NCBI GenBank assembly: GCA_004321885.1
Contig: SCQK01000004.1
Location: 22,684 to 86,683, forward strand
Reading direction: 5' to 3'
From: Patescibacteria group bacterium
GTDB lineage: Bacteria > Patescibacteriota > Patescibacteriia > Magasanikbacterales > GWA2-37-8
DNA length: 64,000 nucleotides
The notes beneath the pieces are model-generated. The model saw nothing but the letters and a program-made list of their open reading frames with translations, ran no database searches and had not been told where the DNA came from. Positions 1,895 through 47,979 of the stretch are shown piece by piece (position 1 is the stretch's first letter; each line of letters opens with the position of its first letter). The position numbers and the translations under genes were made by a program.

Positions 1895-2656
1895 ATGCCC
1901 AAGCAACCTTATAAAATCATTGCTGAAACTGCGGATTATCTGGTGGTGGAAAAACCGGCCGGCCTGTTGACGCATTCCACCGCCAAACGCGAGCCAGACT
2001 CACTGGCTGAGTTGTTGGCAAAAAAATACCCGGAAATGCGCGAGGTGGGCGACTCCCCGGCCGAACGCCCGGGCATTGCGCACCGGCTGGACAAAGAAGC
2101 CTCGGGCTTGCTGGCGGCGGCGCGCACCCAAAAGATGTTTGAACATTTGAAAAAACAGTTCCAGGAACGAACCGTGGAAAAAGAATACATCGCCCTGGTA
2201 CACGGCAAGGTGGCAAAAGATGTCGGCGAAATAAACTTCCCCATCGGCCGAGCGACGAACAAGGAGAGGATGGCGGCCAGGCCGTTTACCCCTCCCTCGC
2301 CACCACACCAAAAATTTTGGTGTGGTGGCGAGCCCTCCCCTTCTAAGGGGGAGGGGAAAATGGCCAGCACTGAATTTGAGGTGGAAAAGCGATTCATCAA
2401 TTTCACCCTATTGCGCGTCAAAATCCACACCGGCCGCATGCACCAGATTCGCGTTCATTTGCTCGCCTACGGCAACCCGCTCGTCGGCGACCCGCTCTAC
2501 ATCAAAAGAAAACAAAAGCGCAAATGGGACCAGGCGCTGGGACGACTTTTCTTGCACTGCGTAAAATTAGTGTTCAAAGATTTGAATGGGGCGCCGCGAA
2601 CATTTACTTCCCCGTTGCCGCTTGAATTGGAAAATTTTCTTAAAAAAATAAAGTAG
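1895..2656 (+). CDS. RluA-family pseudouridine synthase carrying a 24-aa in-frame insertion encoded by a palindromic repeat
   Basis: HRLDKEASG and GRMHQIRVHL motifs. The insertion FTPPSPPHQKFWCGGEPSPSKGEG sits between conserved segments. Confidence 0.8.
   Translation: MPKQPYKIIAETADYLVVEKPAGLLTHSTAKREPDSLAELLAKKYPEMREVGDSPAERPGIAHRLDKEASGLLAAARTQKMFEHLKKQFQERTVEKEYIALVHGKVAKDVGEINFPIGRATNKERMAARPFTPPSPPHQKFWCGGEPSPSKGEGKMASTEFEVEKRFINFTLLRVKIHTGRMHQIRVHLLAYGNPLVGDPLYIKRKQKRKWDQALGRLFLHCVKLVFKDLNGAPRTFTSPLPLELENFLKKIK
2297..2356. repeat. Near-perfect 35-bp palindrome (TCGCCACCACACC..GGTGTGGTGGCGA) plus a family-A GC-rich palindromic element, in frame inside rluA
   Basis: Arms 2297..2309 and 2319..2331 are exact reverse complements. 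CCCTCCCCTTCTAAGGGGGAGGGG lies at 2333..2356. Confidence 0.8.
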
Positions 2657-2657
2657 T

Positions 2658-3242
2658 ATGGGACTTCTCGTCATCATCTCATCTCCCTCGGGCGGCGGCA
2701 AAGACTCGGTTATCAACGGGTTGCTTAAGATAATTCCCAATTCCGGACGCCTGGTAACCGTTACCTCTCGCCCGCCCCGCCCGGGCAATATGGAGGGAAT
2801 TGACTACCACTTCATCAGCCAAAAAGAATTTAAAAAACGGCTAAGCGAAAAATGTTTCTTTGAATATAATATGTATTCAAACCATTATTACGGCACGGAC
2901 AAACATCTGCTCAACGAGGCGCTGGCCAAATATGACGTTATATTTTCCCAAATTGAAATAAACGGCAAGCACAATCTGGACAAGGCCGGGGTGAAAAATT
3001 TGTCCATATTCTTGATGCCGGAAAATCTAAACGATTTGCGCCAAAGAATCGCGCGGCGGGGCGGTTTGACGCCGCAACAGATTGAAGAAAGGATGAAAAT
3101 CGCGGAGAAAGAGATGAAAGAATCGGCGGATTATGATTTTAGGGTGGTAAATAAAGAAGGAAAGCTGGATAAAACCATAGAGCGGGTAAAAAAGATAATC
3201 TTGACAAAAATGAGAAAAAAAGATAGAATGCCTGGTACTTAA
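2658..3242 (+). CDS. gmk: Guanylate kinase
   Basis: P-loop SSPSGGGKDS, TSRPPRPGNMEGIDYHF (the TTRPPR motif), about 190 aa. Confidence 0.85.
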   Translation: MGLLVIISSPSGGGKDSVINGLLKIIPNSGRLVTVTSRPPRPGNMEGIDYHFISQKEFKKRLSEKCFFEYNMYSNHYYGTDKHLLNEALAKYDVIFSQIEINGKHNLDKAGVKNLSIFLMPENLNDLRQRIARRGGLTPQQIEERMKIAEKEMKESADYDFRVVNKEGKLDKTIERVKKIILTKMRKKDRMPGT

Positions 3243-3251
3243 AACAACTGG

Positions 3252-3276
3252 ATTCCCCCGACTAAGTCGGGGGAAT
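3252..3276. repeat. Family-B hairpin ATTCCCCCGACTAAGTCGGGGGAAT overlapping the rplS ribosome-binding site (RBS) and first ATG
   Basis: A 10-bp perfect stem. The 3' arm GGGGGAA is the only SD-like sequence for rplS. Confidence 0.7.
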
Positions 3277-3619
3277 GACAATTATGACCGAAACAACCAC
3301 AAAAGCGGCAGTCTACAAGCCCGGCATGACCGTGAAGGTGCACCAAAAAATCAGGGAATTAAACGTTAAAGGCGAGGAAAAAGAACGCATTCAGATTTTT
3401 GAAGGCATGATTATCGCGGCCAAGCACGGCAATGAGCCGGGCGCCACCATTACGGTGCGCAAGGTTTCAGGCGGCGTGGGCGTGGAAAAAATTTTCCCGA
3501 TTCATTCGCCCATCATAGAGAAAATAGAGGTGGAGCGCGAATACGCGGTGCGGCGCGCCAAACTCCACTATCTGCGCGACCCGAAATTTAAGAGGCGGCT
3601 GAAAGAGAAAACGAAGTAA
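3275..3619 (+). CDS. rplS: 50S ribosomal protein L19
   Basis: [65 protein letters not shown] matches the L19 family. An alternative start lies at 3284. Confidence 0.85.
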
Positions 3620-3628
3620 ATAAAAAAA

Positions 3629-3705
3629 CTGGCTCCATACTCTGTGTGGAGCCAGTTTGCAATACGGCTCCACAGCCCCGACTAAGTCGGGGACTATGGA
3701 GCCAG
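3629..3705. mobile_element. MITE-like family-B element with two stacked hairpins, in reverse orientation relative to the copies at 13683
   Basis: CTGGCTCCATACTCTGTGTGGAGCCAG + TTTGCAATAC + GGCTCCACAGCCCCGACTAAGTCGGGGACTATGGAGCC. It is the reverse complement of the 13683..13769 unit except for the central loop base. Confidence 0.7.
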
Positions 3706-3733
3706 CTACTGACCAGCGATTGGGAGCGGGATT

Positions 3734-6658
3734 TTATCCTTTTAAGTACTTCCCGGTCCAGCTTTTTTTGCTCTTCATAATATCACGCGGAGCGCCCGCG
3801 GCCACAATCTCTCCGCCCTTGTCCCCGCCCTCTGGCCCCATGTCTATCACCCAATCGGCTGAACGTATCACGTCCAGATTGTGCTCTATCACCAGCACGG
3901 TGTTGCCTTTGGCCACCAATCTGTTCAACACTTCCAACAAATGTTTTATATCTTCAAAATGCAAGCCAGTGGTGGGTTCGTCCAAAATATATAATGAATG
4001 TCCGGACGCGCTGCGCGACAGCTCGGCGGACAGCTTTATTCTCTGGGCTTCGCCGCCCGAAACCGTGGTGGCCGGCTGGCCCAGCTGAACATAGCCCAAA
4101 CCGATTTCGCGCAACACGCCCAACTTGCCGGCGATGGGCGGAACGTCGTTAAAAAAAGCAAAGGCCTCGTCTACGGTCATACGCAAGACATCGGCGATAT
4201 TCTTGTTGCGGTAATGTATCTCCAGGGCCTCGCGATTATAGCGGTCTCCGCCGCACTCATTGCACTGCATGTACACGTCGGCCAAAAATTGCATGGGGAT
4301 GCGCACATAGCCCTCACCGGCGCAGGCCTCGCAACGGCCCCCGCCCTTCACGTTAAAACTGAACTTGCCGGCGTCGTAGCCGTTCATTTTGGCTTCGGGC
4401 AAACCGGCGAACAAATCGCGAATCAAAGTAAACAGCCCCGTGTACGTAGCCGGATTACTGCGCGGGGTGCGGCCGATGGGCGACTGGTCCACGGTAATTA
4501 CTTTGTCAATATTTTCAATGCCTTTAATTTTTTTGTGCTCGCCCGGCAAATCTTTGGCCCGATAAAAATGGCGGGCCAGCTGTCTGCCCAAAATATCCAC
4601 GATGAGCGAAGACTTGCCCGAACCAGACACGCCGGTCACGCACACGAATTTGCCCAAGGGGATGTCGGCGTCCACATTTTTCAAATTAAAGGCCCTGGCG
4701 CCGAGGATAGAAATTTTTTTGTTGGATTTTTGCAGACGCGCCCCCATTTTTATGGGCAGGACGCCCCGGCCGACTAGATACTTTCCCGTAACCGATTTTT
4801 TATTTTTTTTTATCTGTTGTAAACTGCCGGCCGCCACGATTTCGCCGCCGGAGAGGCCGGCGCCCGGCCCCATATCAATTAAATAATCCGCGCCGGCCAT
4901 CATAGCGCTGTCGTGCTCCACCACTATTACAGTGTTGCCCAAATCGCGCAAAAATTTCAGGGCGCCGATGAGTTTGGCGTTGTCTTTGGGATGCAGGCCC
5001 ACCGAAGGCTCGTCTAAAATATATATAATGCCGGTAAGGCCCGACGACAGCTGGCCGGCCAAACGCACGCGCGTCACCTCTCCACCCGAGAGCGTGTTCA
5101 TGGCGCGCCCCAGCGACAAGTATCCCAAGCCCACCTCCTGTAAATTTTGCAAGCGCTTGATTGTTTCTTTGATGATGGTTTCACCGTGCTGGGCAAAAAC
5201 TTTGCCTCCCATCCCCCATTTGTCCCCCCCTCTGGCAGAGGAAGAAAGCTTTTCCAAAACCGACACGGCTTGCCCGGCCGACAGCTCGGAAATATCCGCG
5301 ATGCTGTACTGGCCCAGCTTCACGGCCAATGACTCCACGCGCAAACGTTTGCCATGGCACAGGGAACACACCTGCTCGCGCATGTACTGTTCTATTTCAC
5401 CGCGCACATAATCAGAATCGGTCTCCAAATGCCGCTGGGTCAGATTGGTAATCACCCCGGAAAAAACGGTTTTCTTTCCGTCTATTTCGTATGTCTCGTT
5501 GTCGCCGTACAAAATCAGCTTCATCTGCGCATCGGAAAGTTCTGCTACTGGCGCATTCAGAGAAAAATCATGTTTCTGCGCGACCGCGGCCAGAATTTTT
5601 TGGTACCACGTTTGATTGCCGGTAATGCGGGTCCAGGGCTGGATAGCGCCCTCGGCCAAAGTAAGCCGCTTGTTAGGCGCCACCAGCTCCGGGTCAACTT
5701 CCATGGTCACGCCCAAACCAGTACAACGCGGGCAGGCGCCATAAGGGCTGTTAAAACTAAAACTGCGCATGTCAATCGCCGGCATTACTTTGCCGCATTT
5801 AGCGCACAGCCCTTCGGTGGAAAACAACACTTCCCTCCCCCTTTTTAAGGGGAAGGCGGGGTGGGGGTAAGACGCCGCAATCACACTGCCGTTGCTCAAA
5901 TCCAAGGCCGTCTCCACCATTTTGGCGATGTTGGGCTGTTTCTTGGCATTCTGGGTGGAAATATTTCCCACCACCAGTTCCACGTTGTATTTTTTATTGG
6001 GCAAAAAACCAAAACGCGCGAATTCGTTTAGTTTCATCAGCTCGCCGTTTACCCGCACCGTGTCAAAACCCGACTTTTCCACTTTGTCCAGCAATGCGGC
6101 ATGACTGGGTTCCCCTCCCCCTTTTAGAGCTTGTCCCGAACTTGTTTCGGGAGGGAGGACAGAGGAGGGGGTATTTGGCGAGGATGGGGTCAATGGAGAC
6201 AACACCCACACCTCGGAACTATTCCGCGTCATCTTTCTCACTTCCTCGGTAATCTGGCCGGGCGTAAACGACATCACTGGCACGCCGCAACCGGGGCAGT
6301 ATTGCGCGCCCACGCGCGCGAAGAGCAAACGCAAATAATCGTAAATCTCGGTGATAGTGCCCACGGTGGAACGCGGATTCTGCGAAGAACTTTTCTGGCC
6401 GATGGCGATGGTGGGAGAAAGCCCCTCCACGCTGTCCACGTCCGGCTTGTCGCGCACGTCCATAAACTGGCGCGCGAAAGAAGACAGCGACTCGGCGTAG
6501 CGGCGCTGGCCCTCGGCGTAAATTGTGTCAAAGGCGAGCGAGGATTTTCCCGAACCGGACAAGCCGGTAATCACTACCAGCTTGTTCTTGGGAATTTCCA
6601 CGTTTATATTCTTCAAGTTGTGTACTCTCGCCCCTTTGATGATTATTTTATCAGCCAT
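3734..6658 (-). CDS. uvrA: Excinuclease ABC subunit A (UvrA) with two in-frame family-A repeat insertions
   Basis: 974 aa. Two ABC ATPase modules with Walker [11 protein letters not shown] and [10 protein letters not shown], signature LSGGE twice, and zinc-finger cysteines. Collinear with E. coli UvrA apart from the short inserts. Confidence 0.95.
5832..5868. repeat. Family-A GC-rich palindromic element, in frame in uvrA (encodes ..[15 protein letters not shown]..)
   Basis: CCCTCCCCCTTTTTAAGGGGAAGGCGGGGTGGGGGTA. The uvrA reading frame is uninterrupted. Confidence 0.8.
6112..6173. repeat. Family-A element split by a small internal palindrome, in frame in uvrA (encodes ..[31 protein letters not shown]..)
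   Basis: CCCCTCCCCCTTTT..[AGAGCTTGTCCCGAACTTGTTTCGGGAGGGAGGACAG]..AGGAGGGGGTA. Confidence 0.75.
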
Positions 6659-6942
6659 ATAATTGCTATCAAGCCATTATATGCACAAAATACGCCCGTG
6701 TCAACTTCTGCGCCGACAGCCCCATTATATTTCCCAAACCTTAATTATCGGGTAGGAAGCAATTAAATTTTTTCCACATCAAAACACGCGATTTGTAATT
6801 CAAAAAATCCCGTCTTTTCATTATTGAGATTGAAGATATTTATCTCGCTCCATCATTTTCCTTCTTTGCGCCTCAAAACCGATTAACGCTGACAGTAAGT
6901 TATCTATGACCACGCTACAAGTAACGATAATCTCGCCGTATT

Positions 6943-8445: not shown

Positions 8446-8467
8446 AAGACTTTATAAAGAATGCTTT

Positions 8468-8574
8468 AAATTTCCAATTTCCAATCAATGTCCAATGACC
8501 AATTACCAATATCCAATTTGGACATTTGGATTTTGGCATTGATTTGACATTGGAAATTTGTCATTTGTCATTTC
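8468..8574. repeat. AT-rich CCAAT-word repeat block (family C); direct repeat of the block at 9291..9410
   Basis: CCAATTTCCAATCAATGTCCAATGACCAATTACCAATATCCAATTTGGACATTTGGATTTTGGCATTGATTTGACATTGGAAATTTG. Internally it is quasi-palindromic. Confidence 0.7.
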
Positions 8575-9284
8575 GCCAACACCTTCTCCCACTCGCTCAT
8601 AGGCACTACGCCTTCCACTTTCTCGCTGTTGATAAAAAACGTGGGCGTGCCCTGCACCCCAAATCTAAATCCGTCAGCGTAATCGCGATTCACTTTCACT
8701 CCGGTCCGGCCCGAGTCCACGCATTCTTTTAATTTTTGCGCGTCCAGGTAGGCGGTATCGGCCAAAAACTTGTAATCCTCGCCGGCCAGCTCTTTACTAA
8801 ACGCGTCTTGATTGGAAAACAAGGCGTCGTGCGCCTCCCAAAAACGGCCCTGCTCGGCGGCGCAGGCCGCCACTATGGCAAACTTGTTCGCGCCCGGGTG
8901 AATTGACTCGGAGGGAAAAAGCCGGACCGTTAATTTCACTTTGTATCCATATTGGGCCATCATCTGGCGCATTATGGGCGCGGCCATTTTGGAATTTGGG
9001 CACTTGAAATCCACAAACTCCACAATGGAAATTTTGGCATTGGGATTGCCCAAAAACAGCCCGCCCCCTTCTAACTCGGCTCGGCCCGGCTTGGCCGCGG
9101 CGAGCGGCGTTTTTATGGACCGGTCAAAATTTCCGTAAAATGTCTGCCGCAGTTTCAGCCCCTCGCCATTTTTTATCTGCCGCCAGTACCCAATGGTATA
9201 AAAAACAAAAAGCGCCAAAAACAGCGCCAGCAAAGCGCCCAGCCCCAAAATCACGATAGCCCACCAGTGGTGATACCAACGCAT
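8568..9284 (-). CDS. DsbA-like thioredoxin-fold oxidoreductase with an N-terminal TM anchor and a single-Cys CPNS (CxxS) motif
   Basis: TM WWAIVILGLGALLALFLALFVFY. IVEFVDFKCPNSKM lies at the thioredoxin active-site position. The start is refined to MRWYHHWW, because the ORF-track N-terminus is encoded by the repeat. Confidence 0.6.
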   Translation of the reverse strand: MRWYHHWWAIVILGLGALLALFLALFVFYTIGYWRQIKNGEGLKLRQTFYGNFDRSIKTPLAAAKPGRAELEGGGLFLGNPNAKISIVEFVDFKCPNSKMAAPIMRQMMAQYGYKVKLTVRLFPSESIHPGANKFAIVAACAAEQGRFWEAHDALFSNQDAFSKELAGEDYKFLADTAYLDAQKLKECVDSGRTGVKVNRDYADGFRFGVQGTPTFFINSEKVEGVVPMSEWEKVLAK

Positions 9285-9290
9285 ATGTTG

Positions 9291-9410
9291 AAATGACCAA
9301 TTACCAATAACCAATTTCCAATCAAATCCAAATGCCAAATAACAAACTTGGACATTTTAACTTTGACATTAGGAATTGATTTGATATTAGAAATTTGGAT
9401 TTTGGCATTT
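9291..9410. repeat. AT-rich CCAAT-word repeat block (family C), second direct copy
   Basis: TGACCAATTACCAATAACCAATTTCCAATCAAATCCAAATGCC..TTGGACATTTTAACTTTGACATTAGGAATTGATTTGATATTAGAAATTTGGATTTTGGCATT. Confidence 0.7.
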
Positions 9411-9439
9411 ACCGGATTGTTATATTCTATCATAAATAG

Positions 9440-9468
9440 TTGACATTTGCCATAAGATATGGTAAAGT
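9440..9468 (+). promoter_or_regulatory. sigma70-like promoter of secG (TTGACA-17-TAAAGT)
   Basis: TTGACA at 9440..9445, TAAAGT at 9463..9468, about 18 nt before the secG ATG. Confidence 0.45.
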
Positions 9469-9486
9469 ATCTCTACCCTAAAAAGT

Positions 9487-9705
9487 ATGTCTTCCCCTGT
9501 CTTCAATATCATCCAAGTGATTTTGGCCGCTTTGCTGGTGGCGGTTATTCTTTTACAACAAAAAGGTTCCGGCCTGTCGGGTGTGTTCGGCGGCTCTTCC
9601 AATATCTACAGCACCAAAAGGGGCGTGGACAAGATTCTGCATTATTCCACCATCGTCATCTCTTCACTTTTTTTCCTGGTCTCGCTGGCGAGACTCACCT
9701 TCTAA
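9487..9705 (+). CDS. secG: Preprotein translocase subunit SecG
   Basis: 72 aa with two TM helices and the Gly-rich loop ILLQQKGSGLSGVFGG typical of SecG. Confidence 0.75.
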   Translation: MSSPVFNIIQVILAALLVAVILLQQKGSGLSGVFGGSSNIYSTKRGVDKILHYSTIVISSLFFLVSLARLTF

Positions 9706-9718
9706 ATACCTTTCTAAA

Positions 9719-11632: not shown

Positions 11633-11637
11633 TCCAC

Positions 11638-11721
11638 GCCGGGGTGGTGAAATTGGTAGACACGCTAGCTTCAGGAGCTAGTTCTCGCAAGGGAATGGAG
11701 GTTCGAGTCCTCTCCCCGGCA
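11638..11721 (+). tRNA. tRNA-Leu (anticodon CAG), class II with a long variable arm
   Basis: Acceptor GCCGGGG/CCCCGGC, anticodon stem-loop CUAGC-UUCAGGA-GCUAG, variable arm UUCUCGCAAGGGAAUGG, T-arm GGAGG-UUCGAGU-CCUCU. Confidence 0.8.
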
Positions 11722-11727
11722 CAACTT

Positions 11728-11785
11728 GGAGGTTCGTCCGGTCATACGACCGGACGCCCAGTCAAATGACTGGGCGAGTCCCTCC
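11728..11785. other. tRNA-3'-like structured element immediately downstream of tRNA-Leu (repeats the T-arm 5' half GGAGGTTCG)
   Basis: GGAGGTTCGT + CCGGTCATACGACCGG + ACG + CCCAGTCAAATGACTGGG + CGAGT + CCCTCC: two hairpins closed by a GGAGG/CCTCC helix. Confidence 0.4.
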
Positions 11786-11801
11786 TTGCCCACGTCTTTT
11801 T

Positions 11802-11836
11802 CCTCCCCTTGTTAAGGGGAGGATTAAGGAGGGGTA
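11802..11836. repeat. Family-A GC-rich palindromic element, intergenic, upstream of rnj
   Basis: CCTCCCCTTGTTAAGGGGAGGATTAAGGAGGGGTA. Confidence 0.8.
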
Positions 11837-11860
11837 TTCTTAATTATTAAAGAGAAATAT

Positions 11861-13675
11861 ATGATTAGACAACATTCACGAGGACGGCATCAGCGCGCGC
11901 GACGCGCCTATAACACGCCGCCCAAAGAAGCGCCGGCGCAAAGCGCGAACGGCAAGCCAAATATTATCCGGCCCATCTACCAAAAGCCGTCGTTTTCGCG
12001 TTTCAAAAACGATGATTTGAAACTAAAAATCGCGGTCTTGGGCGGGCTGGAAGAAGTGGGTCGCAACTGCACTTTATTTGAATACGACGGCGATATTATT
12101 TTGGTTGACATGGGCCTGCAATTCCCCGAAGAAGATATGCCCGGCATTGATTACATCATTCCCAACATCGGCTATCTGAAAGGCAAGGAAAAAAATATCC
12201 GCGGGGTGATTATCACCCACGCTCACTACGACCACATCGGCGGCATACCCCACCTGATTCCGGCTCTCGGCTATCCCCCGATTTACGGCCTGCCGCTGAC
12301 GAACGCCATCATCAAAAAGCGCCAGGAGGATTACCGTGGCCTGCGGCCGCTAAACATTCATAATATAAATGTGGCTGATAAGTTGCAATTAGGAAATTTT
12401 GAACTGGAATTTTTTCACCTGAACCACAACATCCCCGATTCCATGGGCGTGGTGATTCGCACTCCAGAAGGCGTAGTGGTGCACACCGGCGACTGGAAAT
12501 TTGACTACCAACCGGCCGGCGAACAGCCCGCGGACTTGCAAAGAATAGCGTCCATCGGCAGTCAGGGCGTGCTGGCGCTTTTGTCCGACAGCACCAATGC
12601 CTCGTCCCCGGGCCACCAGATCTCCGAGTCCGAAATCCGCACCAATCTGGATGACATCATTGCCAAGGCCCCGGGCCGCATAATCATCGGCACTTTTTCT
12701 TCGCTCTTGTCGCGCATCAAGCAGATTATTGAAATCTCCGAAAAACTGGGCAAGGTGGTGGCCCTGGACGGCTTTAGCATGAAAAGCAACGTGGCCATTG
12801 CCAAAGAACTAAACTACATGCGATTCAGTCCCAAGACCTTGATTGACCTAAACCGCACGCGCGATTACCCGGACAACAAGGTGGTCATCGTGTGTACTGG
12901 CGCCCAGGGAGAAAAAAACGCTTCCCTAATGCGTATTGCCAGCGGCGAGCACCGCTTGATAGAACTGACGCCCGGGGATACGGTGGTGTTTTCTTCTTCG
13001 GTTATCCCGGGCAACGAGCGCACTGTTCAGCGCCTCAAAGACACTCTTTTTCGCAAAGGCGCCGAGGTGATTCATTACCAGATGATGGACGTGCACGCCG
13101 GCGGGCACGCCAAGGCCGATGACGTGAAGCTAATGATACGCCTGCTTTCGCCCAAGTATTTTATTCCCATTGAAGGCAACCACTTTTTATTGCACTACAA
13201 CGCCAAGGTGGCTGAAAGCATGGGCTTTCCCAAAGAAAATATTTTTATCGCCGACAACGGGCAAGTAATGGAATTTTTCCGCGGCGCCGGCCAGCTCACC
13301 AGAACCAAACTGCCGGCCGATTACGTGTTCGTGGACGGCCTGGGCGTGAGCGATGAAACCAACATTGTTTTGCGCGACCGGCAAGTCCTGGCCGAAGACG
13401 GCATGATTGTGGTGATAGCCACCGTGGACAGCAAAACCGGCAAGCTGGTGCAAAACCCGGATATTATTTCGCGCGGGTTTGTGTTTTTGAAAGAAAACAA
13501 GGAGCTGATAGAAGACCTGCGCCACCGCGTAAAAAAGCTGGTTACCGACAGCGACCCGCTTTCCTGGGCCGACACCAACAACATCCGCAACAAAATCCGC
13601 GACTATGTGGGACAATTTCTGTTTTCCAAAACCGAAAAACGCCCCATGGTGCTTCCAGTGGTGATAGAGGTATAA
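11861..13675 (+). CDS. rnj: Ribonuclease J (metallo-beta-lactamase / beta-CASP RNase)
   Basis: HAHYDHIGG motif, beta-CASP region, about 600 aa, with a basic N-terminal extension. Confidence 0.85.
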   Translation: MIRQHSRGRHQRARRAYNTPPKEAPAQSANGKPNIIRPIYQKPSFSRFKNDDLKLKIAVLGGLEEVGRNCTLFEYDGDIILVDMGLQFPEEDMPGIDYIIPNIGYLKGKEKNIRGVIITHAHYDHIGGIPHLIPALGYPPIYGLPLTNAIIKKRQEDYRGLRPLNIHNINVADKLQLGNFELEFFHLNHNIPDSMGVVIRTPEGVVVHTGDWKFDYQPAGEQPADLQRIASIGSQGVLALLSDSTNASSPGHQISESEIRTNLDDIIAKAPGRIIIGTFSSLLSRIKQIIEISEKLGKVVALDGFSMKSNVAIAKELNYMRFSPKTLIDLNRTRDYPDNKVVIVCTGAQGEKNASLMRIASGEHRLIELTPGDTVVFSSSVIPGNERTVQRLKDTLFRKGAEVIHYQMMDVHAGGHAKADDVKLMIRLLSPKYFIPIEGNHFLLHYNAKVAESMGFPKENIFIADNGQVMEFFRGAGQLTRTKLPADYVFVDGLGVSDETNIVLRDRQVLAEDGMIVVIATVDSKTGKLVQNPDIISRGFVFLKENKELIEDLRHRVKKLVTDSDPLSWADTNNIRNKIRDYVGQFLFSKTEKRPMVLPVVIEV

Positions 13676-13682
13676 ATAATCG

Positions 13683-13852
13683 CTGGCTCCATAGTCCCCG
13701 ACTAAGTCGGGGCTGTGGAGCCGTATTGCAAACTGGCTCCACACAGAGTATGGAGCCAGCGGGTGTAGAAAATCGCTGGCTCCATAGTCCCCGACTAAGT
13801 CGGGGCTGTGGAGCCGTATTGCAAACTGGCTCCACACAGAGTATGGGGTCAG
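13683..13852. mobile_element. Two tandem MITE-like family-B elements between the convergent genes rnj and ldh
   Basis: Unit 13683..13769 (CTGGCTCCATAGTCCCCGACTAAGTCGGGGCTGTGGAGCCGTATTGCAAACTGGCTCCACACAGAGTATGGAGCCAG) is repeated at 13776..13852 with a degenerate last arm. Confidence 0.8.
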
Positions 13853-13870
13853 CGAGCAAAGGGAGGGGTT

Positions 13871-14791: not shown

Positions 14792-14805
14792 AATAATAAA
14801 TTATT

Positions 14806-15201: not shown

Positions 15202-15243
15202 ACATAAATTTCAAATCTCCTTTTTAGATAGTATAGCAAACAA

Positions 15244-15268
15244 AAACGCCCCTGTTAAGGGGGCGTTT
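15244..15268 (-). terminator. Rho-independent terminator of rnpB
   Basis: AAACGCCCC-TGTTAA-GGGGGCGTTT, followed on the minus strand by a U-rich tract (plus-strand AAACAAAAA at 15232..15243). Confidence 0.6.
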
Positions 15269-15269
15269 G

Positions 15270-15724
15270 TGGTTCATGGTTATAAGCCGAATTTTGTACC
15301 CCGACGTTACGTCGGGGCGATGTTCATTTCTCTGGTCTTGACATTGCTGTCAAAATCTTAGCGAGCGAACTTTTTATCCCGACTAAGTCGGGACTCTGCT
15401 CTTGCGCCAGACAGGGCTTGGCACTCTTCGACGTTGCCGCCGAAGGGAGTATGGTAGCTTTGGTCTCGAGAACCACAACTCCCATACACTTTTCACCTTT
15501 GACGAACCCCGACTAAGTCGGGGTGAACGTCCGCCTGTGGCGGACTCTCATGAATCGCTAGTATTGTCTCTGTGCCGCTTTCCCTACGCCGACGTTGCCG
15601 CCGACGTGGCGGGTGTTACCCGTTGCCTTTTTCTTTACCGGCTAGTTCCGCTAAGGGCGGACAGACGGAAAGGGCGTTCGGACTTTCCTTCCCGACTAAG
15701 TCGGGACGAACATCTGCCACGAAC
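15270..15724 (-). ncRNA. rnpB: RNase P RNA, bacterial type A
   Basis: Minus-strand RNA reads ..GGAAGGAAAGUCCGAAC.. (P4 5' strand), ..GGGUAACACCCGCC.., ..AGGUGAAAAGUG.., ..AUGAACAUCG-CCCCGACGUAACGUCGGGG-UACAAAAUUCGGCUUAUAACC.. (P15-P18 and P4 3' strand; compare E. coli AUGAAUGACUGUCCACGACAGAACCCGGCUUAUCGG). P1 is GUUCGUGG/CCAUGAAC. The ORF-track ORFs 15023..15361 and 15402..15731 lie inside it. Confidence 0.85.
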
Positions 15725-15730
15725 TGATTA

Positions 15731-15760
15731 AATGTAGCACAAAAACGCCGACTTGTCAAG
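15731..15760 (-). promoter_or_regulatory. Putative rnpB promoter (minus strand TTGACA-17-TACATT)
   Basis: Reverse-complement TTGACA at 15760..15755 and TACATT at 15736..15731, about 7 nt upstream of the predicted P1 5' end. Confidence 0.4.
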
Positions 15761-15787
15761 ACAGCTAAAAAAGAGTAAAATGGCAGT

Positions 15788-17203: not shown

Positions 17204-17210
17204 GACCCCT

Positions 17211-18335: not shown

Positions 18336-19529
18336 ATGCGCGTTGGCATTGATGTCAGGCCGCTGATGAATGACGTGCGCACCGGCATTGGCGAATACAC
18401 GCATTTTTTGCTGGACACTATTTTTGACATTGATAAAAAGAACGAATATTTTCTGTTTTACAACTCCGGCAAAGATGTCGGCGCCAATATTCCCCAGTGG
18501 ACGCAAAATAATATTCATTATGTCGCGAGCAGATGGCCCAATAAAATTTTCAACGCGTCCATAAAATTTTTCAACCGGCCGCGAATCAAAGAGGTGGACA
18601 TTTTTTTTTCTCCTAATCTCAACTTCACCGCCCTGTCGCCGAAAACAAAATTTATTCTCACGGTTCACGACTTGTCCTTTGAGCTGTTTCCGGAATTTTT
18701 TTCCGCCAAACAGCGGCTGTGGCACAAAATGATAAACCCGCGCAGACAATGCCAGCGGGCCGATATTATTATCGCGCCCTCTGAAAACACCAAGCGGGAT
18801 TTGAGGGAGATATATAATATAGAAGAGAAAAAAATAAAAGTGATTTACCCGGGAATATGTCATCCCGACCCGCCACAGGGCGGGGAGGGATCTCTGTTCA
18901 CGGCTGGCTCCATAATCCCCCCCACAGGGGTGGAGCTAAACTGCAAGCTGGCTCCACAGCCCGCCTTTGGCGGGATTATGGAGCCAGCCAATTCCAATCC
19001 CTACATCCTCTTCCTCGGCACCATTGAGCCGCGCAAAAATATTATCGGCCTGATAGAGGCGTTTGAAAAAGCCTGCCCCTCGCTCCCGGCGCCTTACACC
19101 CTCGTTATCGCCGGGGCCGCGGGCTGGAACAATAAACAGATTTACGAACGCGCCAAAAATTCCCCCATTAAAGATAAAATTAAAATTTTGGGATACGTGC
19201 GGCCGGAAGAAAAGCCGGCTCTGTATGCCGGCGCGGCCTTGTTTTGCTATCCCAGCATTTACGAGGGCTTTGGTTTTCCGGTTTTGGAAGCCATGTCCGC
19301 GGGGACTCCGGTTTTAACCTCAAACCGCTCTTCCCTGCCGGAAATAACGAGCGGCGCCGCGCACCTGGTAAATCCAAACAATGTTTCCGACATGGCCGCA
19401 GGCATAATAAACATTTTAACCAACGAAAAACTGCGCAATTTTTTGAAAGAAAAGGGCCAAGAGCAGGCCGCGAAATTTTTATGGCAAGAAGCGGCGGAAA
19501 AATTTTTAAGCGTTATTCGCTCTTTGTAA
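18336..19529 (+). CDS. Glycosyltransferase family 4 with an in-frame MITE-like (family-B-related) insertion
   Basis: GT4 motifs (LGTIEPRKNI, YEGFGFPVLEAMSAGTPVL). The roughly 30-aa insert SLFTAGSIIPPTGVELNCKLAPQPAFGGIMEPA is encoded by the repeat at 18903..18987. Confidence 0.8.
   Translation: MRVGIDVRPLMNDVRTGIGEYTHFLLDTIFDIDKKNEYFLFYNSGKDVGANIPQWTQNNIHYVASRWPNKIFNASIKFFNRPRIKEVDIFFSPNLNFTALSPKTKFILTVHDLSFELFPEFFSAKQRLWHKMINPRRQCQRADIIIAPSENTKRDLREIYNIEEKKIKVIYPGICHPDPPQGGEGSLFTAGSIIPPTGVELNCKLAPQPAFGGIMEPANSNPYILFLGTIEPRKNIIGLIEAFEKACPSLPAPYTLVIAGAAGWNNKQIYERAKNSPIKDKIKILGYVRPEEKPALYAGAALFCYPSIYEGFGFPVLEAMSAGTPVLTSNRSSLPEITSGAAHLVNPNNVSDMAAGIINILTNEKLRNFLKEKGQEQAAKFLWQEAAEKFLSVIRSL
18903..18987. 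repeat. Variant MITE-like element with CTGGCTCCA..TGGAGCCAG arms, inserted in frame in the GT4 gene
   Basis: CTGGCTCCATAATCCCCCCCACAGGGGTGGAGC + TAAACTGCAAG + CTGGCTCCACAGCCCGCCTTTGGCGGGATTATGGAGCCAG. It shares its outer arms with the units at 3629 and 13683. Confidence 0.75.
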
Positions 19530-26056: not shown

Positions 26057-26165
26057 CCCCTCCCCTTGATATCTGCGGATATTTACTCATTCGTTCGGAA
26101 GTAAAAGTATAAACTTTTACTTCACTCACTCATTTCGTAAATAAGGGGAGGGTTAGGGAGGGGTA
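26057..26165. repeat. Composite: a family-A element (CCCCTCCCCTTGAT ... ATAAGGGGAGGGTTAGGGAGGGGTA) split by a 70-bp AT-rich GAGTGA-family element
   Basis: Left half at 26057..26070 and right half at 26141..26165. The insert at 26071..26136 contains the palindrome GAAGTAAAAGT-ATA-AACTTTTACTTC and ATATCTGCGGATAT. The right half encodes the miaB C-terminus LPLPNPPLIYEMSE. Confidence 0.75.
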
Positions 26166-27456
26166 AAATAATTTCACCCTTTAAGACCCAAACATCAGCG
26201 GAAGTAATCTTAACATCCAAAATTTTTCCAATCAAATTTTTTGCGCCGGCAAACTGCGCGAGCTTCATTTCCGAAGAGTTGCCCGAGCAAATCCCTGCCT
26301 CGCATTTGTCCGCCAATACCGAAACTGTTTTGCCGATGTATTTTTGATTTTTGCGATAAGTTGTTTCTTCCATCAATTCTTGTAAAATCTGCCAGCGGCG
26401 CTTTTTTTCTAGGCGCGGCACATCATCTTTGAAGGCCCTGGCCGCGGCCGTCCCACTGCGCTGACTATACATGGCCGTGTAGGAAATGTCAAAATCACAC
26501 TCTTTGTACAGAGCCACCGTGTTTTGAAACTGTTTCTCGGTCTCGCCGCAAAAACCCGCGATAATATCCGTGCCAATGGCGATACTTGGTTTGGCCTGGC
26601 GGATTTTTTTTATCAAATCAATATATTGCTCCCGCGTGTACTGGCGATTCATCTTGCGCAAAATTTCATTATCCCCGCTTTGAACCGGCAGGTGCAGATA
26701 ATTCACCTGCTTGGGCAGTTTCAGCGCCTCTATTTGCGCGTCGGAAAAATAACGCGGGTCCGCGGCGGTAAAATGCAAGCGCTCCAACCCAGCCAACTTA
26801 TTCAGCTCTTTCAGTAAATCGACGAAACTGTCCCCCTCCCCCTTTTTAAGGGGGAGGTTGGGTAGGGGTAAATCCGGATCGCGGTAATTATTCACCACCT
26901 GCCCGAGCAGAATAATTTCTTTCGCGCCATTTTCAATCGCTATTTTTACCTCGTTAATAATTTCTTTGGCCGGCCGGTTTTTCTCGCGGCCGCGCGCCTG
27001 CGGCACCACGCAATAGGTGCAATAATTATCACAGCCGGTCTGAATAGTGATAAACGTTTGAAATCTACTCGTTCGCGCCGGCGCCAACTCTAAATAATCT
27101 CCAAGGTCAGCGCCTCCCAGCCATCTTGACAGCACCCCCATTTCGTGTATCGGAAAATACAAGTCAACCCCTTTTAGCCTGCTTTTTAACTTCCCGTCTT
27201 TGTCGCGGCCCGGCATACAGCCGGTAACAGCGATTGTCAAATCCGGCTTTTTTGCCTTAAGTTGGCTCCAATTTCGCACTAGCCCGTGAACGCGGTCTTC
27301 GGCGCTTTGGCGCACCGAGCAGGTATTGACAATTAGTAAATCCGAGTTTTCGGCTTTGGCGCTTCTGGTCATCCCCAAGAAATTCAAAAAACCGGCGATT
27401 CTCTCTGAATCGTTTTTGTTCATCTGACAGCCGAAGGTAACGAGAAAATACTTCAT
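26122..27456 (-). CDS. miaB: tRNA methylthiotransferase, radical-SAM MiaB family
   Basis: MTTase N-terminal domain (FLVTFGCQMNKNDSE), radical-SAM CxxxCxxC (GCDNYCTYCVVP), TRAM C-terminus. Contains an in-frame family-A insert ([16 protein letters not shown]). Confidence 0.85.
   Translation of the reverse strand: MKYFLVTFGCQMNKNDSERIAGFLNFLGMTRSAKAENSDLLIVNTCSVRQSAEDRVHGLVRNWSQLKAKKPDLTIAVTGCMPGRDKDGKLKSRLKGVDLYFPIHEMGVLSRWLGGADLGDYLELAPARTSRFQTFITIQTGCDNYCTYCVVPQARGREKNRPAKEIINEVKIAIENGAKEIILLGQVVNNYRDPDLPLPNLPLKKGEGDSFVDLLKELNKLAGLERLHFTAADPRYFSDAQIEALKLPKQVNYLHLPVQSGDNEILRKMNRQYTREQYIDLIKKIRQAKPSIAIGTDIIAGFCGETEKQFQNTVALYKECDFDISYTAMYSQRSGTAAARAFKDDVPRLEKKRRWQILQELMEETTYRKNQKYIGKTVSVLADKCEAGICSGNSSEMKLAQFAGAKNLIGKILDVKITSADVWVLKGEIILPLPNPPLIYEMSE
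26832..26870. repeat. Family-A element in frame inside miaB
   Basis: CCCCCTCCCCCTTTTTAAGGGGGAGGTTGGGTAGGGGTA. Confidence 0.8.
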
Positions 27457-33304: not shown

Positions 33305-33338
33305 TAATCACACTAACTAACGACAGACGCTTGGGTAA

Positions 33339-34307: not shown

Positions 34308-34363
34308 AAAATAATATTAGAGACTTAGGTCTCTAATATTATACCACAATTTAGGACGCGCGG

Positions 34364-36208: not shown

Positions 36209-36216
36209 AAATATTA

Positions 36217-45253: not shown

Positions 45254-45268
45254 CCCGACTCAGTCGGG
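45254..45268. repeat. Short family-B hairpin CCCGACTCAGTCGGG embedded in a larger inverted repeat (GGATGTGTTC..GAACACATCC, 45228..45312)
   Basis: Nested stem-loops that also include GAGGCCTC and CTTTTCCGCGCGCGAAAAG palindromes. Confidence 0.6.
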
Positions 45269-45332
45269 ATGGCCGAGGCCTCGCGGCCGAGGAAAGTGAG
45301 AACACATCCAGACGCGTGAGTCATTACAAAAA

Positions 45333-46604
45333 CTACATCACATCGTACGCGTGCATTGTTAATTGCGCGTCTATCTGCTTGGCGGTCTCAATGGCCACGG
45401 CCACCACGATAAGCAAACTGGTGCCGCCGATAACCAAATTCTGCGTACCCATGGCGCCCTGCAAAATCAAAGGCAAAATCGCGATAAGCCCCAAAAATAG
45501 CGCGCCTATTAAATTGATCCTGTTCATAGTAGCGCCCAGATACTTCTGGGTTTCATTGCCCGGCCTGATGCCCGGAATAAAGCCGCCCTGTTTCTGTAAA
45601 TTCTCGGCTATTTTTTGCGGATGAAATATCACGGCCGTGTAAAAATACGTAAAAGCGAAGACTAACAAGAAATAAGCCAGGCCGTAAAACAACTGGTTCT
45701 GAAATAAATTGATGGTGCCGGCGGCAACGCGCGCCAGCCAGGCGGTTTTAGCGGCCGTGAAAAATTGCGCTATCATGGGCGGAAACAGCACCAATGAAAT
45801 GGCAAAGATAATCGGAATCACTCCGGCCATATTGACGCGCAAGGGCAAATGGGTGGTGTTGCCGCCGTACATGCGGTTGCCGCGCACCTGCTTGGCGTAG
45901 TTTACCGGAATATTGCGCTGGCCCTCATTGATAAATACCACCCCTACCACGGTCAGAACAGCTATCAAAACAAACAGCACAATCATGTACAAATCCGCCG
46001 AAGTGTAATTGATGAAAACATTGCGCACCGCGCCGGGCAGGCCCGACACAATGCCGGCAAAGATTAAGAGCGAAATGCCGTTGCCCACTTTTTTTTCGGA
46101 AATCAGCTCGCCCAGCCACATCAAAAACATGGTGCCGGCCGTAATGGTAAGCATGATAATGACAAAACGCGCGACATTCAGGTCGGGCAGAACCGCGGCC
46201 GAGCGGTTGAGCAATTTGATGGTGGCGTAGGATTGCAGAAACGCCAGCGGCACGGTGAGAAAACGGGTGTACATGTTTATTTTCTGCTGGCCGCTTTCGC
46301 CTTCCTTGGACATCTCTTCCAACTTGGGCACTATCATGGTGAGCAACTGAAAAATAATGGAAGCCGTGATGTAGGGCCCCACGCCCAGCATGACAATGGA
46401 AAAATTTTCCATGGTGCCGCCGGAAAAAACATTGAGCAGGCCCAGGATTTGATTGCCGGCCAAAATGCGCCGCATGGCCGCCAGGTCAACCCCGGGAATG
46501 GGGATGTGGGCGACCAGCCTGAAAATAACGAGCAGGGCCAGCACGAACAGAATCTTGTTGCGGACGTCTTTTATTTTCCAAACTTGCAGAATTTTCTCCC
46601 ACAT
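45333..46604 (-). CDS. secY: Preprotein translocase subunit SecY
   Basis: 423 aa with 10 TM helices, starting MWEKILQVWKIKDVRNKILFVLALLVIFRL. Confidence 0.9.
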   Translation of the reverse strand: MWEKILQVWKIKDVRNKILFVLALLVIFRLVAHIPIPGVDLAAMRRILAGNQILGLLNVFSGGTMENFSIVMLGVGPYITASIIFQLLTMIVPKLEEMSKEGESGQQKINMYTRFLTVPLAFLQSYATIKLLNRSAAVLPDLNVARFVIIMLTITAGTMFLMWLGELISEKKVGNGISLLIFAGIVSGLPGAVRNVFINYTSADLYMIVLFVLIAVLTVVGVVFINEGQRNIPVNYAKQVRGNRMYGGNTTHLPLRVNMAGVIPIIFAISLVLFPPMIAQFFTAAKTAWLARVAAGTINLFQNQLFYGLAYFLLVFAFTYFYTAVIFHPQKIAENLQKQGGFIPGIRPGNETQKYLGATMNRINLIGALFLGLIAILPLILQGAMGTQNLVIGGTSLLIVVAVAIETAKQIDAQLTMHAYDVM

Positions 46605-46605
46605 A

Positions 46606-47046
46606 TTATTTTACTTCTCCGCCCGCCGCCCTCACCTGCTCCACCGCCGCCTTGGTCAATCTCAATCCTTCAATCGTCAACTTCTTGGTCAATGCGCCGG
46701 TGTTCAAAATTTTGGCGGCCAGAGCGTTCTTGCTTATTATACCCTTTTCCGCCAAACTCTTCAAAGTGACTGTTTCGTTGGCGCTAAAATTTTTTTCCAA
46801 ATCGCCAAGCAAAACCTCGGCCGGCTTTACGGCCAAACTCTTGAACCCGCGCAGTTTGGGCGTGGACTGCATTTGAAATTTGAAACCCAGCAATTTCAAT
46901 CCGGCGCTGCCGCCCGAGCGGGCGGTCTGGCCCTTGCCGCCGCGGCCCGAATAATTGCCGTGTCCAGACGCGTTGCCGCGCCCCCGTTTTTTCTTGGCAT
47001 GGCGCGCGCCTTTAGCCGGCTTGATTGTATGGGGTTGTAAAATCAT
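46606..47046 (-). CDS. rplO: 50S ribosomal protein L15
   Basis: Gly/Arg-rich N-terminus (KKKRGRGNASGHGNYSGRGGKGQ). Position after rpsE. Confidence 0.85.
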   Translation of the reverse strand: MILQPHTIKPAKGARHAKKKRGRGNASGHGNYSGRGGKGQTARSGGSAGLKLLGFKFQMQSTPKLRGFKSLAVKPAEVLLGDLEKNFSANETVTLKSLAEKGIISKNALAAKILNTGALTKKLTIEGLRLTKAAVEQVRAAGGEVK

Positions 47047-47534
47047 ACTGTTTTTTGGCTTACAGGCTTAAACATCTGCAAGGCTTCAAACGTTGCTTTG
47101 GCAATCGTCACTTTATTTTTAGTCTTGCCCAAAATTTTGGAAGAGACATTGGGCACGCCGGCCAATTCCAAAATGGCGCGCACGGCCCCGCCGGCGATAA
47201 TACCCGAGCCCTTGGGCGCCGGCATCAGCAATACCGTGGCCGCTTTGAACTTGCATAAAATAGAATGCGGAATGGTTTCGTTTATAATGGGAACCGTAAT
47301 CATTGATTTTTTGGCCTTGTTGCCGGCTTTTTCCACGCCGATTTGCACGTCGCGGCCCGTGGCCAAACCCAAACCAACCCGTCCGCGGCGGTCGCCCACG
47401 ATAACGCAGGCGCGAAAACTTAAATGCTTGCCGCCCTTGGTCACGCGCGTTACGCGGCTCAAATCCAAAATATGCTGGTCCAAATCGGATTTTTCCGGCC
47501 GCTCGCCTCTTTTGCCTCTGCGCATTGGTTTCAT
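47043..47534 (-). CDS. rpsE: 30S ribosomal protein S5
   Basis: dsRBD + S5 C-terminal domain (VTKGGKHLSFRACVIVGDRRGRVGLGLATGRDV). Its stop overlaps the rplO start, so no L30 gene lies between. Confidence 0.9.
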   Translation of the reverse strand: MKPMRRGKRGERPEKSDLDQHILDLSRVTRVTKGGKHLSFRACVIVGDRRGRVGLGLATGRDVQIGVEKAGNKAKKSMITVPIINETIPHSILCKFKAATVLLMPAPKGSGIIAGGAVRAILELAGVPNVSSKILGKTKNKVTIAKATFEALQMFKPVSQKTV

Positions 47535-47552
47535 ATATTTTCCTTAGTTTTT

Positions 47553-47585
47553 CCTCCCCTTTTAGGGGAGGGACAGGGTGGGGTA
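47553..47585. repeat. Family-A element between rplR and rpsE
   Basis: CCTCCCCTTTTAGGGGAGGGACAGGGTGGGGTA. Confidence 0.75.
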
Positions 47586-47587
47586 GA

Positions 47588-47962
47588 TTAAAATTGCAAG
47601 CCGCCGGCCCTGGCGCCTTCAGCCAAGGCTTTGACGCGGCCGTGGTACTTGTATCCGCCGCGGTCAAAAACTATTTTGACTATATTTTTCTTCTGCGCTT
47701 TTTCGGCCAATAATTTTCCCGTCAAAAAACTCTGCGCCGCTTTGCCGCCATATCCTTCGGCTTTTTTCTCCTTGATTTGCGAGCCGTCGGCCGCGCACAG
47801 GGTCTGGCCCTTGTCGTCATCTATCAGCTGGGCGGAAATTTTTTTCAAACTGCGGAAAACCGAAAGCCGCGGCGTTTGGGCCGTGCCTTTAACATCGGCG
47901 CGCACGCGGCTGTGGCGCGCTTGCCTTAATTTATTTTTTGTGGGATTGAATAATCTTTTCAT
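47588..47962 (-). CDS. rplR: 50S ribosomal protein L18
   Basis: 124 aa; ..RHSRVRADVKGTAQTPRLSVFRSLKKISAQLIDD.. matches the L18 family. Confidence 0.85.
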   Translation of the reverse strand: MKRLFNPTKNKLRQARHSRVRADVKGTAQTPRLSVFRSLKKISAQLIDDDKGQTLCAADGSQIKEKKAEGYGGKAAQSFLTGKLLAEKAQKKNIVKIVFDRGGYKYHGRVKALAEGARAGGLQF

Positions 47963-47966
47963 ATTC

Positions 47967-47979
47967 TAAGGGGGAGGGC
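47967..47979. repeat. Half family-A element (TAAGGGGGAGGGC) between rplF and rplR
   Basis: Only the right arm is present. Confidence 0.4.

Follow-up and report, generated by a model that had tools for sequence, protein, structure and literature searches.

Repeats of the BoxC/PIT/TM kind have been known since the 1990s, and to our knowledge no function or way of spreading has been established for them. BoxC was first noticed in E. coli, and the name potential intrastrand triplex (PIT) elements was given by Hoyne et al. (2000). The E. coli motif TMECO, CCCTCNCCC-N3-6-GGGNGAGGG-N3-GGGNGAGGG, occurs 3610 times in 262 proteobacterial genomes, and very many GC-rich motifs are found in Microcystis, Anabaena and Nostoc, with 443 in Microcystis (Holder 2015, PMC4666352). 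As a single strand, TMECO forms a stable triplex in vitro, as judged by circular dichroism (CD) and nuclear magnetic resonance (NMR), and purine-motif triplexes do not form in RNA (PMC4666352). In E. coli K-12 it is present in 23 copies that are always intergenic and show no strand bias; PIT elements in E. coli have neither promoter nor terminator activity, TMECO shows no link to transposases or integrases, and local sequence instability is elevated (PMC4666352). When complete E. coli genomes were searched, the TMECO pattern was recovered in 5409 of 5426, at a median of 17 places per genome. Another point of comparison is provided by the Rickettsia palindromic elements (RPEs), which occur only in Rickettsia, are ~150 bp long and code for a conserved peptide (Ogata et al. 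2000, summarised in PMC10969869). Here, we analyzed a GC-rich repeat, referred to as Family A, that is dispersed through a 64-kb stretch of a Patescibacteria (candidate phyla radiation, CPR) genome (contig SCQK01000004.1; hereafter, the window). Judging from its sequence, Family A would belong to the class II (purine-motif) intrastrand triplex motifs, the kind known as BoxC/PIT/TM, an assignment to which we give a probability of about 80%.

Family A is built from three consecutive blocks on one strand. On the G-rich strand, its consensus reads, 5' to 3', CCTCCCCTT-N3-4-AAGGGGAGG-N3-5-GG[A/T]GGGGTA, and the stems found in the window are of the form CCTCCCC(C)TT/AAGGGG(G)AGG. The tail GG[A/T]GGGGTA mirrors the purine arm AAGGGGAGG, which places the element in the BoxC/PIT/TM intrastrand triplex class. 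It is basically not a palindrome: a previous interpretation of this DNA, made without database searches (the sequence-only reading), had taken the outer arm for half of a palindrome, but it proved to be a mirror repeat of the purine arm. The same reading had presented a palindrome of ~50 bp at 41207 as the full form of the repeat. A 51-nt form does exist there, but it is exceptional: since the left outer arm is present in just 7 of 127 copies elsewhere (among the matches listed), the usual unit is a hairpin with a 3' tail, and the 41207 palindrome corresponds to two units sharing one hairpin.

The correspondence between stem and tail extends to individual copies. All 10 triads are valid in four window copies and 9 of 10 in three, the others reaching 8/8, 7/8 and 6/7. 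Run lengths co-vary as well, the 5-C cores at 5832 and 41220 being matched by 5-G tails. At 43718, the tail GAGAGGGGTA is the mirror of the complement of the CTCTCCCCTT arm, the CTCTCCCC arm (CTCT) being paired with a GAGAGGGG tail (GAGAG). The block order pyrimidine, purine, reverse-Hoogsteen was found in the seven intact copies and in the interrupted ones at 6112 and 26057. To place these observations on a larger sample, 704 distinct pyrimidine-loop-purine hairpins were gathered from every locus collected, and a subset was formed from the 308 that our search patterns could not have selected. A perfect mirror tail was present in 122 of these 308, whereas permuting the tails gave 21 on average and 36 at most, and the mirror-tailed hairpins of this subset, from loci of other phyla, carried 34 distinct purine arms. 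Examples of stems and tails obeying the mirror rule include AAGGGGGGA with AGGGGGGTA, AAGGAGGGG with GGGGAGGTA, GGGAGAGGG with GGGTGAGGG and AAAGAGGGG with GGGGAGATT. Among all 704 hairpins, G in the purine arm faced G in the tail 2171 times and another base only 22 times (A 15, T 7), while A faced A in 470 cases and T in 543, with 23 exceptions (C 8, G 15). This facing pattern is exactly the antiparallel (reverse-Hoogsteen) triplex code.

The number of copies in the window was determined with a covariance model built from 8 window copies and 8 copies from elsewhere, run unfiltered on both strands of the 64 kb. Seven intact + strand copies were recovered, starting at 5832, 11799, 26833, 41218, 42491, 43716 and 47550 (E-values from 5e-10 to 3e-16), together with one reverse copy whose hairpin is common with the 41207 site and three interrupted copies (6112-6176, 26057-26168 and, on the - strand, 2284-2356); there was no further match with E < 0.1 on either strand of the window. 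The site at 47967 was missed by the model and holds a 12-nt arm relic only. The window total is thus 10 loci plus this relic, with no copy past 48 kb, a unit length of 32-39 bp and 9 of the 10 copies in + strand orientation. Every site listed by the sequence-only reading was inspected and does carry the repeat, and folding confirmed its hairpin-forming nature: all copies yield hairpins of -13 to -23 kcal/mol, and interrupted or compound ones reach -51 (ViennaRNA, which models the hairpin only). A chance origin is excluded, since a strict pattern gave 3 window matches versus 0.00 in shuffles and a general triplex-motif finder with ITxF-like rules (6-15 triads per stem, no more than one mismatch in stems longer than 7, loops of 1-6 nt) gave 7 versus 0.03 expected from Markov simulations. 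The seven finder matches, with stems of 10-11 and 0-1 mismatch, are exactly the intact Family A copies. No Rfam family matched the repeat in a search of the window and 18 related loci, nor did a literature search by sequence string return a relevant match. The individual copies are as follows.

2287..2356, - strand: interrupted copy in an RluD-like pseudouridine synthase gene (1895-2656, +), found by covariance model
2287-2295: third block of the RluD-like copy, TACCCCTCC on the + strand
2296-2332: 37-nt foreign palindrome in loop 2 of the RluD-like copy, whose hairpin lies at 2333-2356
5834..5869, + strand: intact motif, 9/10 triads, in-frame within uvrA (3734-6658, -)
6114..6173, + strand: in-frame uvrA copy whose loop 1 contains a 29-nt insert with a hairpin
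11801..11836, + strand: intact motif, 10/10 triads, preceded by tRNA-Leu (11638-11722) and followed by the RNase J gene (11861-13675, +)
26059..26165, + strand: copy with 10/10 triads and a 75-nt foreign palindrome (26069-26143) in loop 1, at the miaB 3' end
26835..26870, + strand: intact motif, 9/10 triads, in-frame within miaB (26122-27456, -)
41207..41257, no single strand: two opposed motifs on one common hairpin (51-nt palindrome)
42494..42528, + strand: intact motif, 10/10 triads, at the 3' end of ruvX/yqgF (42486-42896, -)
43718..43749, + strand: degenerate copy, 6/7 triads, shortened purine arm
47553..47585, + strand: intact motif, 8/8 triads, within the ribosomal protein operon, flanked by ORFs 47043-47534 and 47588-47962 (both -)
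47967..47978, + strand: arm-only relic TAAGGGGGAGGG, between ORF 47984-48556 (by eye L6) and 47588-47962 (by eye L18), with neither partner arm nor tail seen at the site

Six of the 10 window copies overlap coding sequence, four internally and two at a C-terminus. The internal copies, two in UvrA and one each in MiaB and the RluD-like synthase, are all in-frame; the sequence-only reading, which had placed five copies in frame within essential genes, was right about the frame and counted one too many. In UvrA, whose next relatives are only 68% identical, the 6114 copy corresponds to a 25-residue insertion absent from all but one of 21 aligned orthologues, the exception (P0013) carrying a short and different insert at this site. 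The 5834 copy adds ~10 residues, and most of the 21 orthologues lack an insert there. In the AlphaFold model of UvrA, residues 159-183 and 268-273 have a predicted local distance difference test (pLDDT) score below 50 and 268-273 is coil, so that the model predicts both inserts to be disordered loops between regular secondary-structure elements. The internal MiaB copy is a net insertion of ~8 residues compared with structure 7mjz, and the RluD-like copy places 21 residues exactly between residues 137 and 138 of PDB 11wx. At the C-termini, homology to solved structures stops at residue 429 of 444 in MiaB and at ~120 of 136 in RuvX; miaB ends in ~15 residues and a stop codon contributed by the tail side of the 26059-26165 copy, and ruvX/yqgF in ~15 codons and a stop contributed by 42494-42528, bearing out the earlier claim that two copies form gene 3' ends. 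These comparisons show that the intragenic window copies are true insertions at the sequence level, without counterpart in orthologues or solved homologues, and that the inserts are tolerated in what the models predict to be loops. Identity between copies residing in unrelated genes reaches 90%, so that they represent insertions of pre-formed sequence. They are read in three frames (YPHP.., LPLP.. and TPP..), and the C-rich strand is the sense strand in all six coding-overlapping copies.

The other window copies occupy short spacers between tandem genes, including a ribosomal protein operon. All intergenic copies are of this tandem type, and the convergent arrangement also claimed for some of them was found at zero sites. 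The 11801-11836 copy is the sole one with its G-rich strand in the sense orientation relative to the flanking genes. The 41207-41257 palindrome is located between an MgtE-N/CBS gene (41263-42474, -) and an Nramp gene (39968-41200, -). The 43718 copy is located in the 43 nt that separate ORFs 43752-44411 and 42902-43708 (both -); these ORFs from their translations look like adenylate kinase and methionine aminopeptidase genes, respectively. The ORFs on either side of the 47553 copy read by eye as ribosomal proteins L18 (47588-47962) and S5 (47043-47534). On the - strand, the purine arm of the 26059-26165 copy precedes the likely miaA ATG by 8 nt.

Three of the 10 copies are interrupted by foreign palindromes, each within a loop: the 6112 and 26057 copies are occupied in loop 1 and the 2287-2356 copy in loop 2. 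These nested palindromes are the only reason for which the 6112, 26057 and 2287 copies fail the ITxF loop rule. Such loop-specific nesting is consistent with a folded form existing in vivo, an argument that carries an ascertainment bias because copies broken in a stem are hard to recognise. The nested guests recur in the window at 52025-52061 and 38077-38109. One is a third small palindrome of the window, CCACCACACCAAAAATTTTGGTGTGGTGG, present at 2296-2332 and 38077-38109, whose copy nested in the RluD-like gene is translated in-frame (PPHQKFWCGG). Another is a fourth palindromic element of ~70 nt, ATATCTGCGGATAT..., found at 26069-26143 (loop 1, miaB/miaA junction) and 51996-52061, the latter directly upstream of the start of ORF 51319-51996, which by its translation looks like rpsC (S3).

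The Family A architecture is widespread. A scan for the hairpin-plus-tail pattern, using one genome per species, detected the module in at least 120 loci of many phyla, of which ~10 are estimated to be chance matches. The matches listed include Cyanobacteria (Nostocales, Microcoleus, Pseudanabaena and Chamaesiphon), Nitrospira/Nitrospirales, Nitrospinota, Deltaproteobacteria, Sphingomonas, Lysobacteraceae, Elusimicrobia, Planctomycetota, Peribacteria and another Patescibacteria metagenome-assembled genome (MAG), to which plasmid searches add Photobacterium, Aeromonas, Moraxella, Azospirillum and Pelobacter. The idea of a lineage-specific palindromic element must thus be abandoned. In other phyla the copies are mostly intergenic (~120 of 131 among the matches listed). 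In the same set, two or three copies look truly intragenic after inspection, lying in the linker of a Nostoc RluA fusion, in a Nitrospirae CobB-type linker and in QueA of a Patescibacteria MAG; six other apparent cases (L006, L009, L019, L036, L065 and L107) were dropped as wrong-frame or upstream-of-start artefacts. A phage origin was also rejected, as only 9 matches were present in 2.9 million viral contigs, making phage carriage negligible. On the plasmid side, the Aeromonas plasmid NZ_CP077204 (L122, ~3975-4040) carries a complete triplex motif in the spacer between a folK fragment and sul4, by a class 1 integron cassette array; a second pyrimidine-purine hairpin precedes the motif, and the C-rich strand is sense. 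The same spacer motif is found on Aeromonas caviae and Moraxella plasmids, and presumably travelled with sul4 from its donor genome. The 1.69-Mb replicon of Photobacterium sp. GJ3 (L121) contains at 19.2-20.8 kb an array of tandem units ~142 nt in length, each comprising two pyrimidine-purine hairpins and at least one mirror tail, with at least 40 BLAST places in the replicon.

Closer relatives of the window repeat were recovered from metagenomes. Scanning for AAGGGGAGG-N2-5-AAGGAGGGGTA returned 101 loci, and the full three blocks were present in 54 of 88 distinct matches; these 54 complete metagenomic copies belong, with those of Falkowbacteria contigs, to the window subfamily AAGGGGAGGATTAAGGAGGGGTA. 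A WecG/NUDIX glycosyltransferase gene carries the motif in-frame in three Falkowbacteria-like contigs. Orthologues with the motif are 66-93% identical, one of them (L238) showing a decayed hairpin with the peptide kept, while orthologues at 74-75% identity have an uninterrupted site. Between L157 and L144 the motif is ~88% identical and the coding flanks ~73% (by eye, small numbers). Comparison of filled and empty WecG sites revealed neither a base-exact boundary nor a target duplication, the boundary being out of reach because the orthologues are too diverged. The WecG/NUDIX loop following WIYHNLP has also received at least three unrelated insert types across CPR lineages (the triplex motif, a ITPPPTPPIGKERGA-type insert and a longer one of ~35-55 residues with RRGTGGGEDLNL), which suggests that permissive sites receive insertions repeatedly. 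A CPR PrmC gene contains two oppositely oriented copies. Other CPR uvrA genes carry related but distinct GC-rich palindromes in-frame at or near the same two loops (L123 1204-1362, L125 1352-1429 and L124 1276-1341), one of which is CCCCACCCCTA-CCCCGCCCAAGCGGGG, forming a REPIN-like inverted doublet in L123; in this stem, a C-G inversion is faced by T in the tail. With related loci included, our own count of orientations for copies overlapping coding sequence is ~11:3 in favor of the C-rich sense strand.

Several other explanations could account for a dispersed hairpin with a conserved tail. Family A could be a MITE or REP/REPIN-like element moved by a dedicated transposase (either IS630/Tc1 with TA duplication or RAYT/IS200 HUH), its tail being the outer part of a terminal inverted repeat (TIR) or a recognition tail. 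A TA dinucleotide borders the 51-nt palindrome at 41207 at either end, REPIN-like inverted doublets occur in other genomes, convergent gene gaps are preferred over divergent ones (29 versus 9 among the matches listed), and the combination of hairpin and conserved tail resembles REP. However, with both outer arms in so few copies elsewhere, the common unit lacks one inverted-repeat end, and one-armed copies show by eye neither TA-TA flanks nor any other duplication. Pfam scans of 20 less obvious window ORFs revealed no transposase, Y1 included; clustering of 2071 ORFs around 131 copies (among the matches listed) yielded only unrelated housekeeping and sensor genes rather than a recurrent neighbour family, and no arms interrupted by an insert of 1-3 kb were detected. 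The GTAG head of REPs is absent, and an inverted-repeat model leaves the tail, a mirror and not a complement, unexplained across 34 stem variants. We thus consider a MITE or REP moved by a dedicated transposase unlikely. The more specific RAYT/REP idea was rejected, the REP linked to the Nostoc punctiforme RAYT being a different sequence.

A G-quadruplex or i-motif element, in which purine arm and tail would give four G-tracts with the C-rich arm competing, draws support from the four runs of at least three G present in 85 of 127 copies of other phyla, many of them cyanobacterial (e.g., GGGGAGGGTTAGGGTGGGG, among the matches listed), and in the window copies 26141 and 47553. Yet the subfamily AAGGGGAGGATTAAGGAGGGGTA of the window, Falkowbacteria and metagenomes has only two tracts of quadruplex grade, stems such as AAGGGGGGA with tail AGGGGGGTA obey the mirror rule without four tracts, and a quadruplex has no need for A facing A or T, all of which makes this explanation very unlikely. 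Alternatively, the repeat could act as a functional RNA in operon spacers, where the hairpin would hide a Shine-Dalgarno (SD)-like GGAGG for translational coupling, or stabilise or terminate transcripts. Every copy does fold, and the purine arm lies on the mRNA strand 8-11 nt upstream of the starts of miaA, ORF 42902-43708 and the Nramp gene. But four copies are inside coding sequences, three others are 18-25 nt from the next start codon, no U-run follows the hairpin on either strand, and the orientation of copies elsewhere relative to flanking genes is unbiased (32 versus 26 among the matches listed). Together with the inactivity of PIT elements as promoters or terminators in E. coli (PMC4666352), the lack of an Rfam match and a mirror tail left unexplained, these points render an RNA element scarcely credible.

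If Family A is an intrastrand triplex motif, the pyrimidine and purine blocks would pair into a hairpin on the G-rich strand, and the third block would fold back antiparallel in the major groove to form G.G-C, A.A-T and T.A-T triads, a fold at the DNA level. The G-rich strand would adopt this form, at least transiently, when single-stranded in vivo, and new copies could arise via a single-stranded DNA step using a host or trans-acting activity. The element encodes nothing itself and is likely a short, non-autonomous repeat whose copies reach new sites. In a gene-dense CPR genome, many surviving copies would then be found in tight operon spacers or genes; intragenic survivors would be those that keep the frame, fall in a surface loop and leave the C-rich strand in the mRNA, the others being removed by selection. 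Such inserts would be translated as Pro-rich and K/R-G-rich loops or C-terminal tails, and the orientation bias may reflect selection against a foldable G-rich non-template strand or against SD-like or quadruplex-prone mRNA. A broader proposal is that intrastrand triplex motifs are mobile DNA crossing phyla without a transposase of their own, the folded hairpin-triplex serving as intermediate or target mark, loop nesting being its in vivo footprint and CPR genomes gaining new loops and C-termini from it; we put this forward as a possible but rather doubtful extension.

A number of observations weigh against the triplex assignment or against mobility. In E. coli, the motif showed no dimethyl sulfate (DMS) protection in vivo, and double-stranded oligonucleotides stayed duplex (PMC4666352). 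The mirror-tail rule partly fits a G-quadruplex, with which the 85 copies counted above are compatible. Our scans of the window, flanks and loci revealed no enzyme, target-site duplication or parent element, the Pfam and split-arm searches being among them, so that the term mobile rests on presence or absence among orthologues of 66-75% identity. The orientation bias is drawn from few events (6:0 in the window, ~11:3 with related loci), the lack of orientation bias in intergenic copies elsewhere was noted above, and replication-strand (GC skew) bias was not seen either (72 versus 59 among the matches listed). Finally, the host genome is represented here by 64 kb.

The window contains further small repeats and features apart from Family A. 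A second palindromic family, GGCTCCACAGCCCCGACTAAGTCGGGGACTATGGAGCC, is found at 3629-3716, 13669-13854, 18930-18962 and 45109-45165, with two consecutive 93-nt units at 13669-13854. The core of this family, CCCGACTNAGTCGGG, has 13 occurrences in the window, with hairpins also at 15361-15394 and 15674-15707. Within the RNase P RNA gene (15267-15725, -) it is present in three helices, namely P3 and two other hairpin regions; at least one of these hairpins is an insertion relative to the Rfam model. AT-rich tandem repeats of the heptamer type (ATTACCA / ATTTCCA / TGACCAA) are located at 8468-8573, 9283-9410 and 52060-52099. They resemble the cyanobacterial STRR heptamers and co-occur with small palindromes as in Nostoc. 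A tRNA-Ile gene at 1155-1228 has the anticodon UAU, which is uncommon in bacteria. A DUF3800-II RNA (Rfam, 67 bits) at 38568-39195 adjoins a DUF3800 protein gene, and the low-GC stretch at 38-40 kb (GC 0.38, the lowest in the window) may be an acquired island.

These results place the same kind of motif inside conserved CPR genes, with filled and empty orthologous sites, and indicate that an insert can outlast speciation with its hairpin kept and that intragenic orientation is biased to the C-rich sense strand. The CPR cases thus offer a handle on two questions, the mobility of the motif and the in vivo relevance of its fold. For annotation, they mean that there are short Pro/Gly-rich inserts and tails in CPR proteins whose origin is repeat DNA and not protein evolution. 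If triplex motifs are mobile, the essential enzymes of compact CPR genomes would repeatedly gain new loops and C-termini from them.

Compared with known systems, integron attC sites were rejected as relatives: the RYYYAAC...GTTRRRY cores, which in an attC site (R''/L''-L'/R') pair at the hairpin base, show no conservation and most copies lack the left one, GTTAGGT/GTTAGGG-like strings occurring in some subfamilies only and the window spacers being ATTAA/AGTAA. The Nostocaceae SDR repeats, compared by their description only (PMC3116915, PMC5861425), share the property of nesting, as 21-27 nt repeats, in other repeats or hairpins, and the co-occurrence with heptamer repeats. REP/REPIN elements (RAYT) are likewise short GC-rich hairpins with a conserved single-stranded extension (PMC3116915), lie mostly at gene 3' ends, form inverted doublets and have a proposed single-strand DNA biology; they differ by the GTAG head missing beside the window hairpins, and they do not follow the mirror rule. 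The RPEs, named by the sequence-only reading as the closest analogy, share the appearance of selfish repeats residing in-frame in unrelated housekeeping genes of a small genome, where they are tolerated as extra surface segments, as in UvrA, MiaB, the RluD-like synthase and RuvX. RPEs are 100-150 bp long and AT-rich. In contrast, the window element is a GC-rich triplex motif of 32-39 bp, is read in all three frames without a conserved peptide and crosses phyla. Because of its in-frame insertions and gene 3' ends, it is therefore RPE-like in behavior, which does not amount to family membership. The closest match is provided by BoxC/PIT/TM, with which Family A shares the order Y-loop-R-loop-R(mirror) in three consecutive blocks, GC-rich stems of 9-10 nt, loops of 3-6 and 3-5 nt with TTA common as the second loop, and many near-identical dispersed copies with occasional inverted doublets and without mobility genes. 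The density differs, with ~10 copies in the 64-kb window versus 23 in the 4.6-Mb E. coli K-12 genome, as does the host, a Patescibacteria (CPR) genome. The published view from E. coli, of a strictly intergenic, unbiased motif with no mobility link, also contrasts with the CPR copies in genes, 6 of 10 window copies overlapping coding sequence and 9 of 10 sharing one orientation; in-frame residence in essential genes is not reported for this kind of repeat. Since the window stem CCTCCCCTT/AAGGGGAGG differs from the TMECO stem CCCTCNCCC/GGGNGAGGG and does not match the TMECO pattern, the repeat is of the same kind but is not TMECO itself: it is a new stem variant of BoxC/PIT/TM in a new host group.

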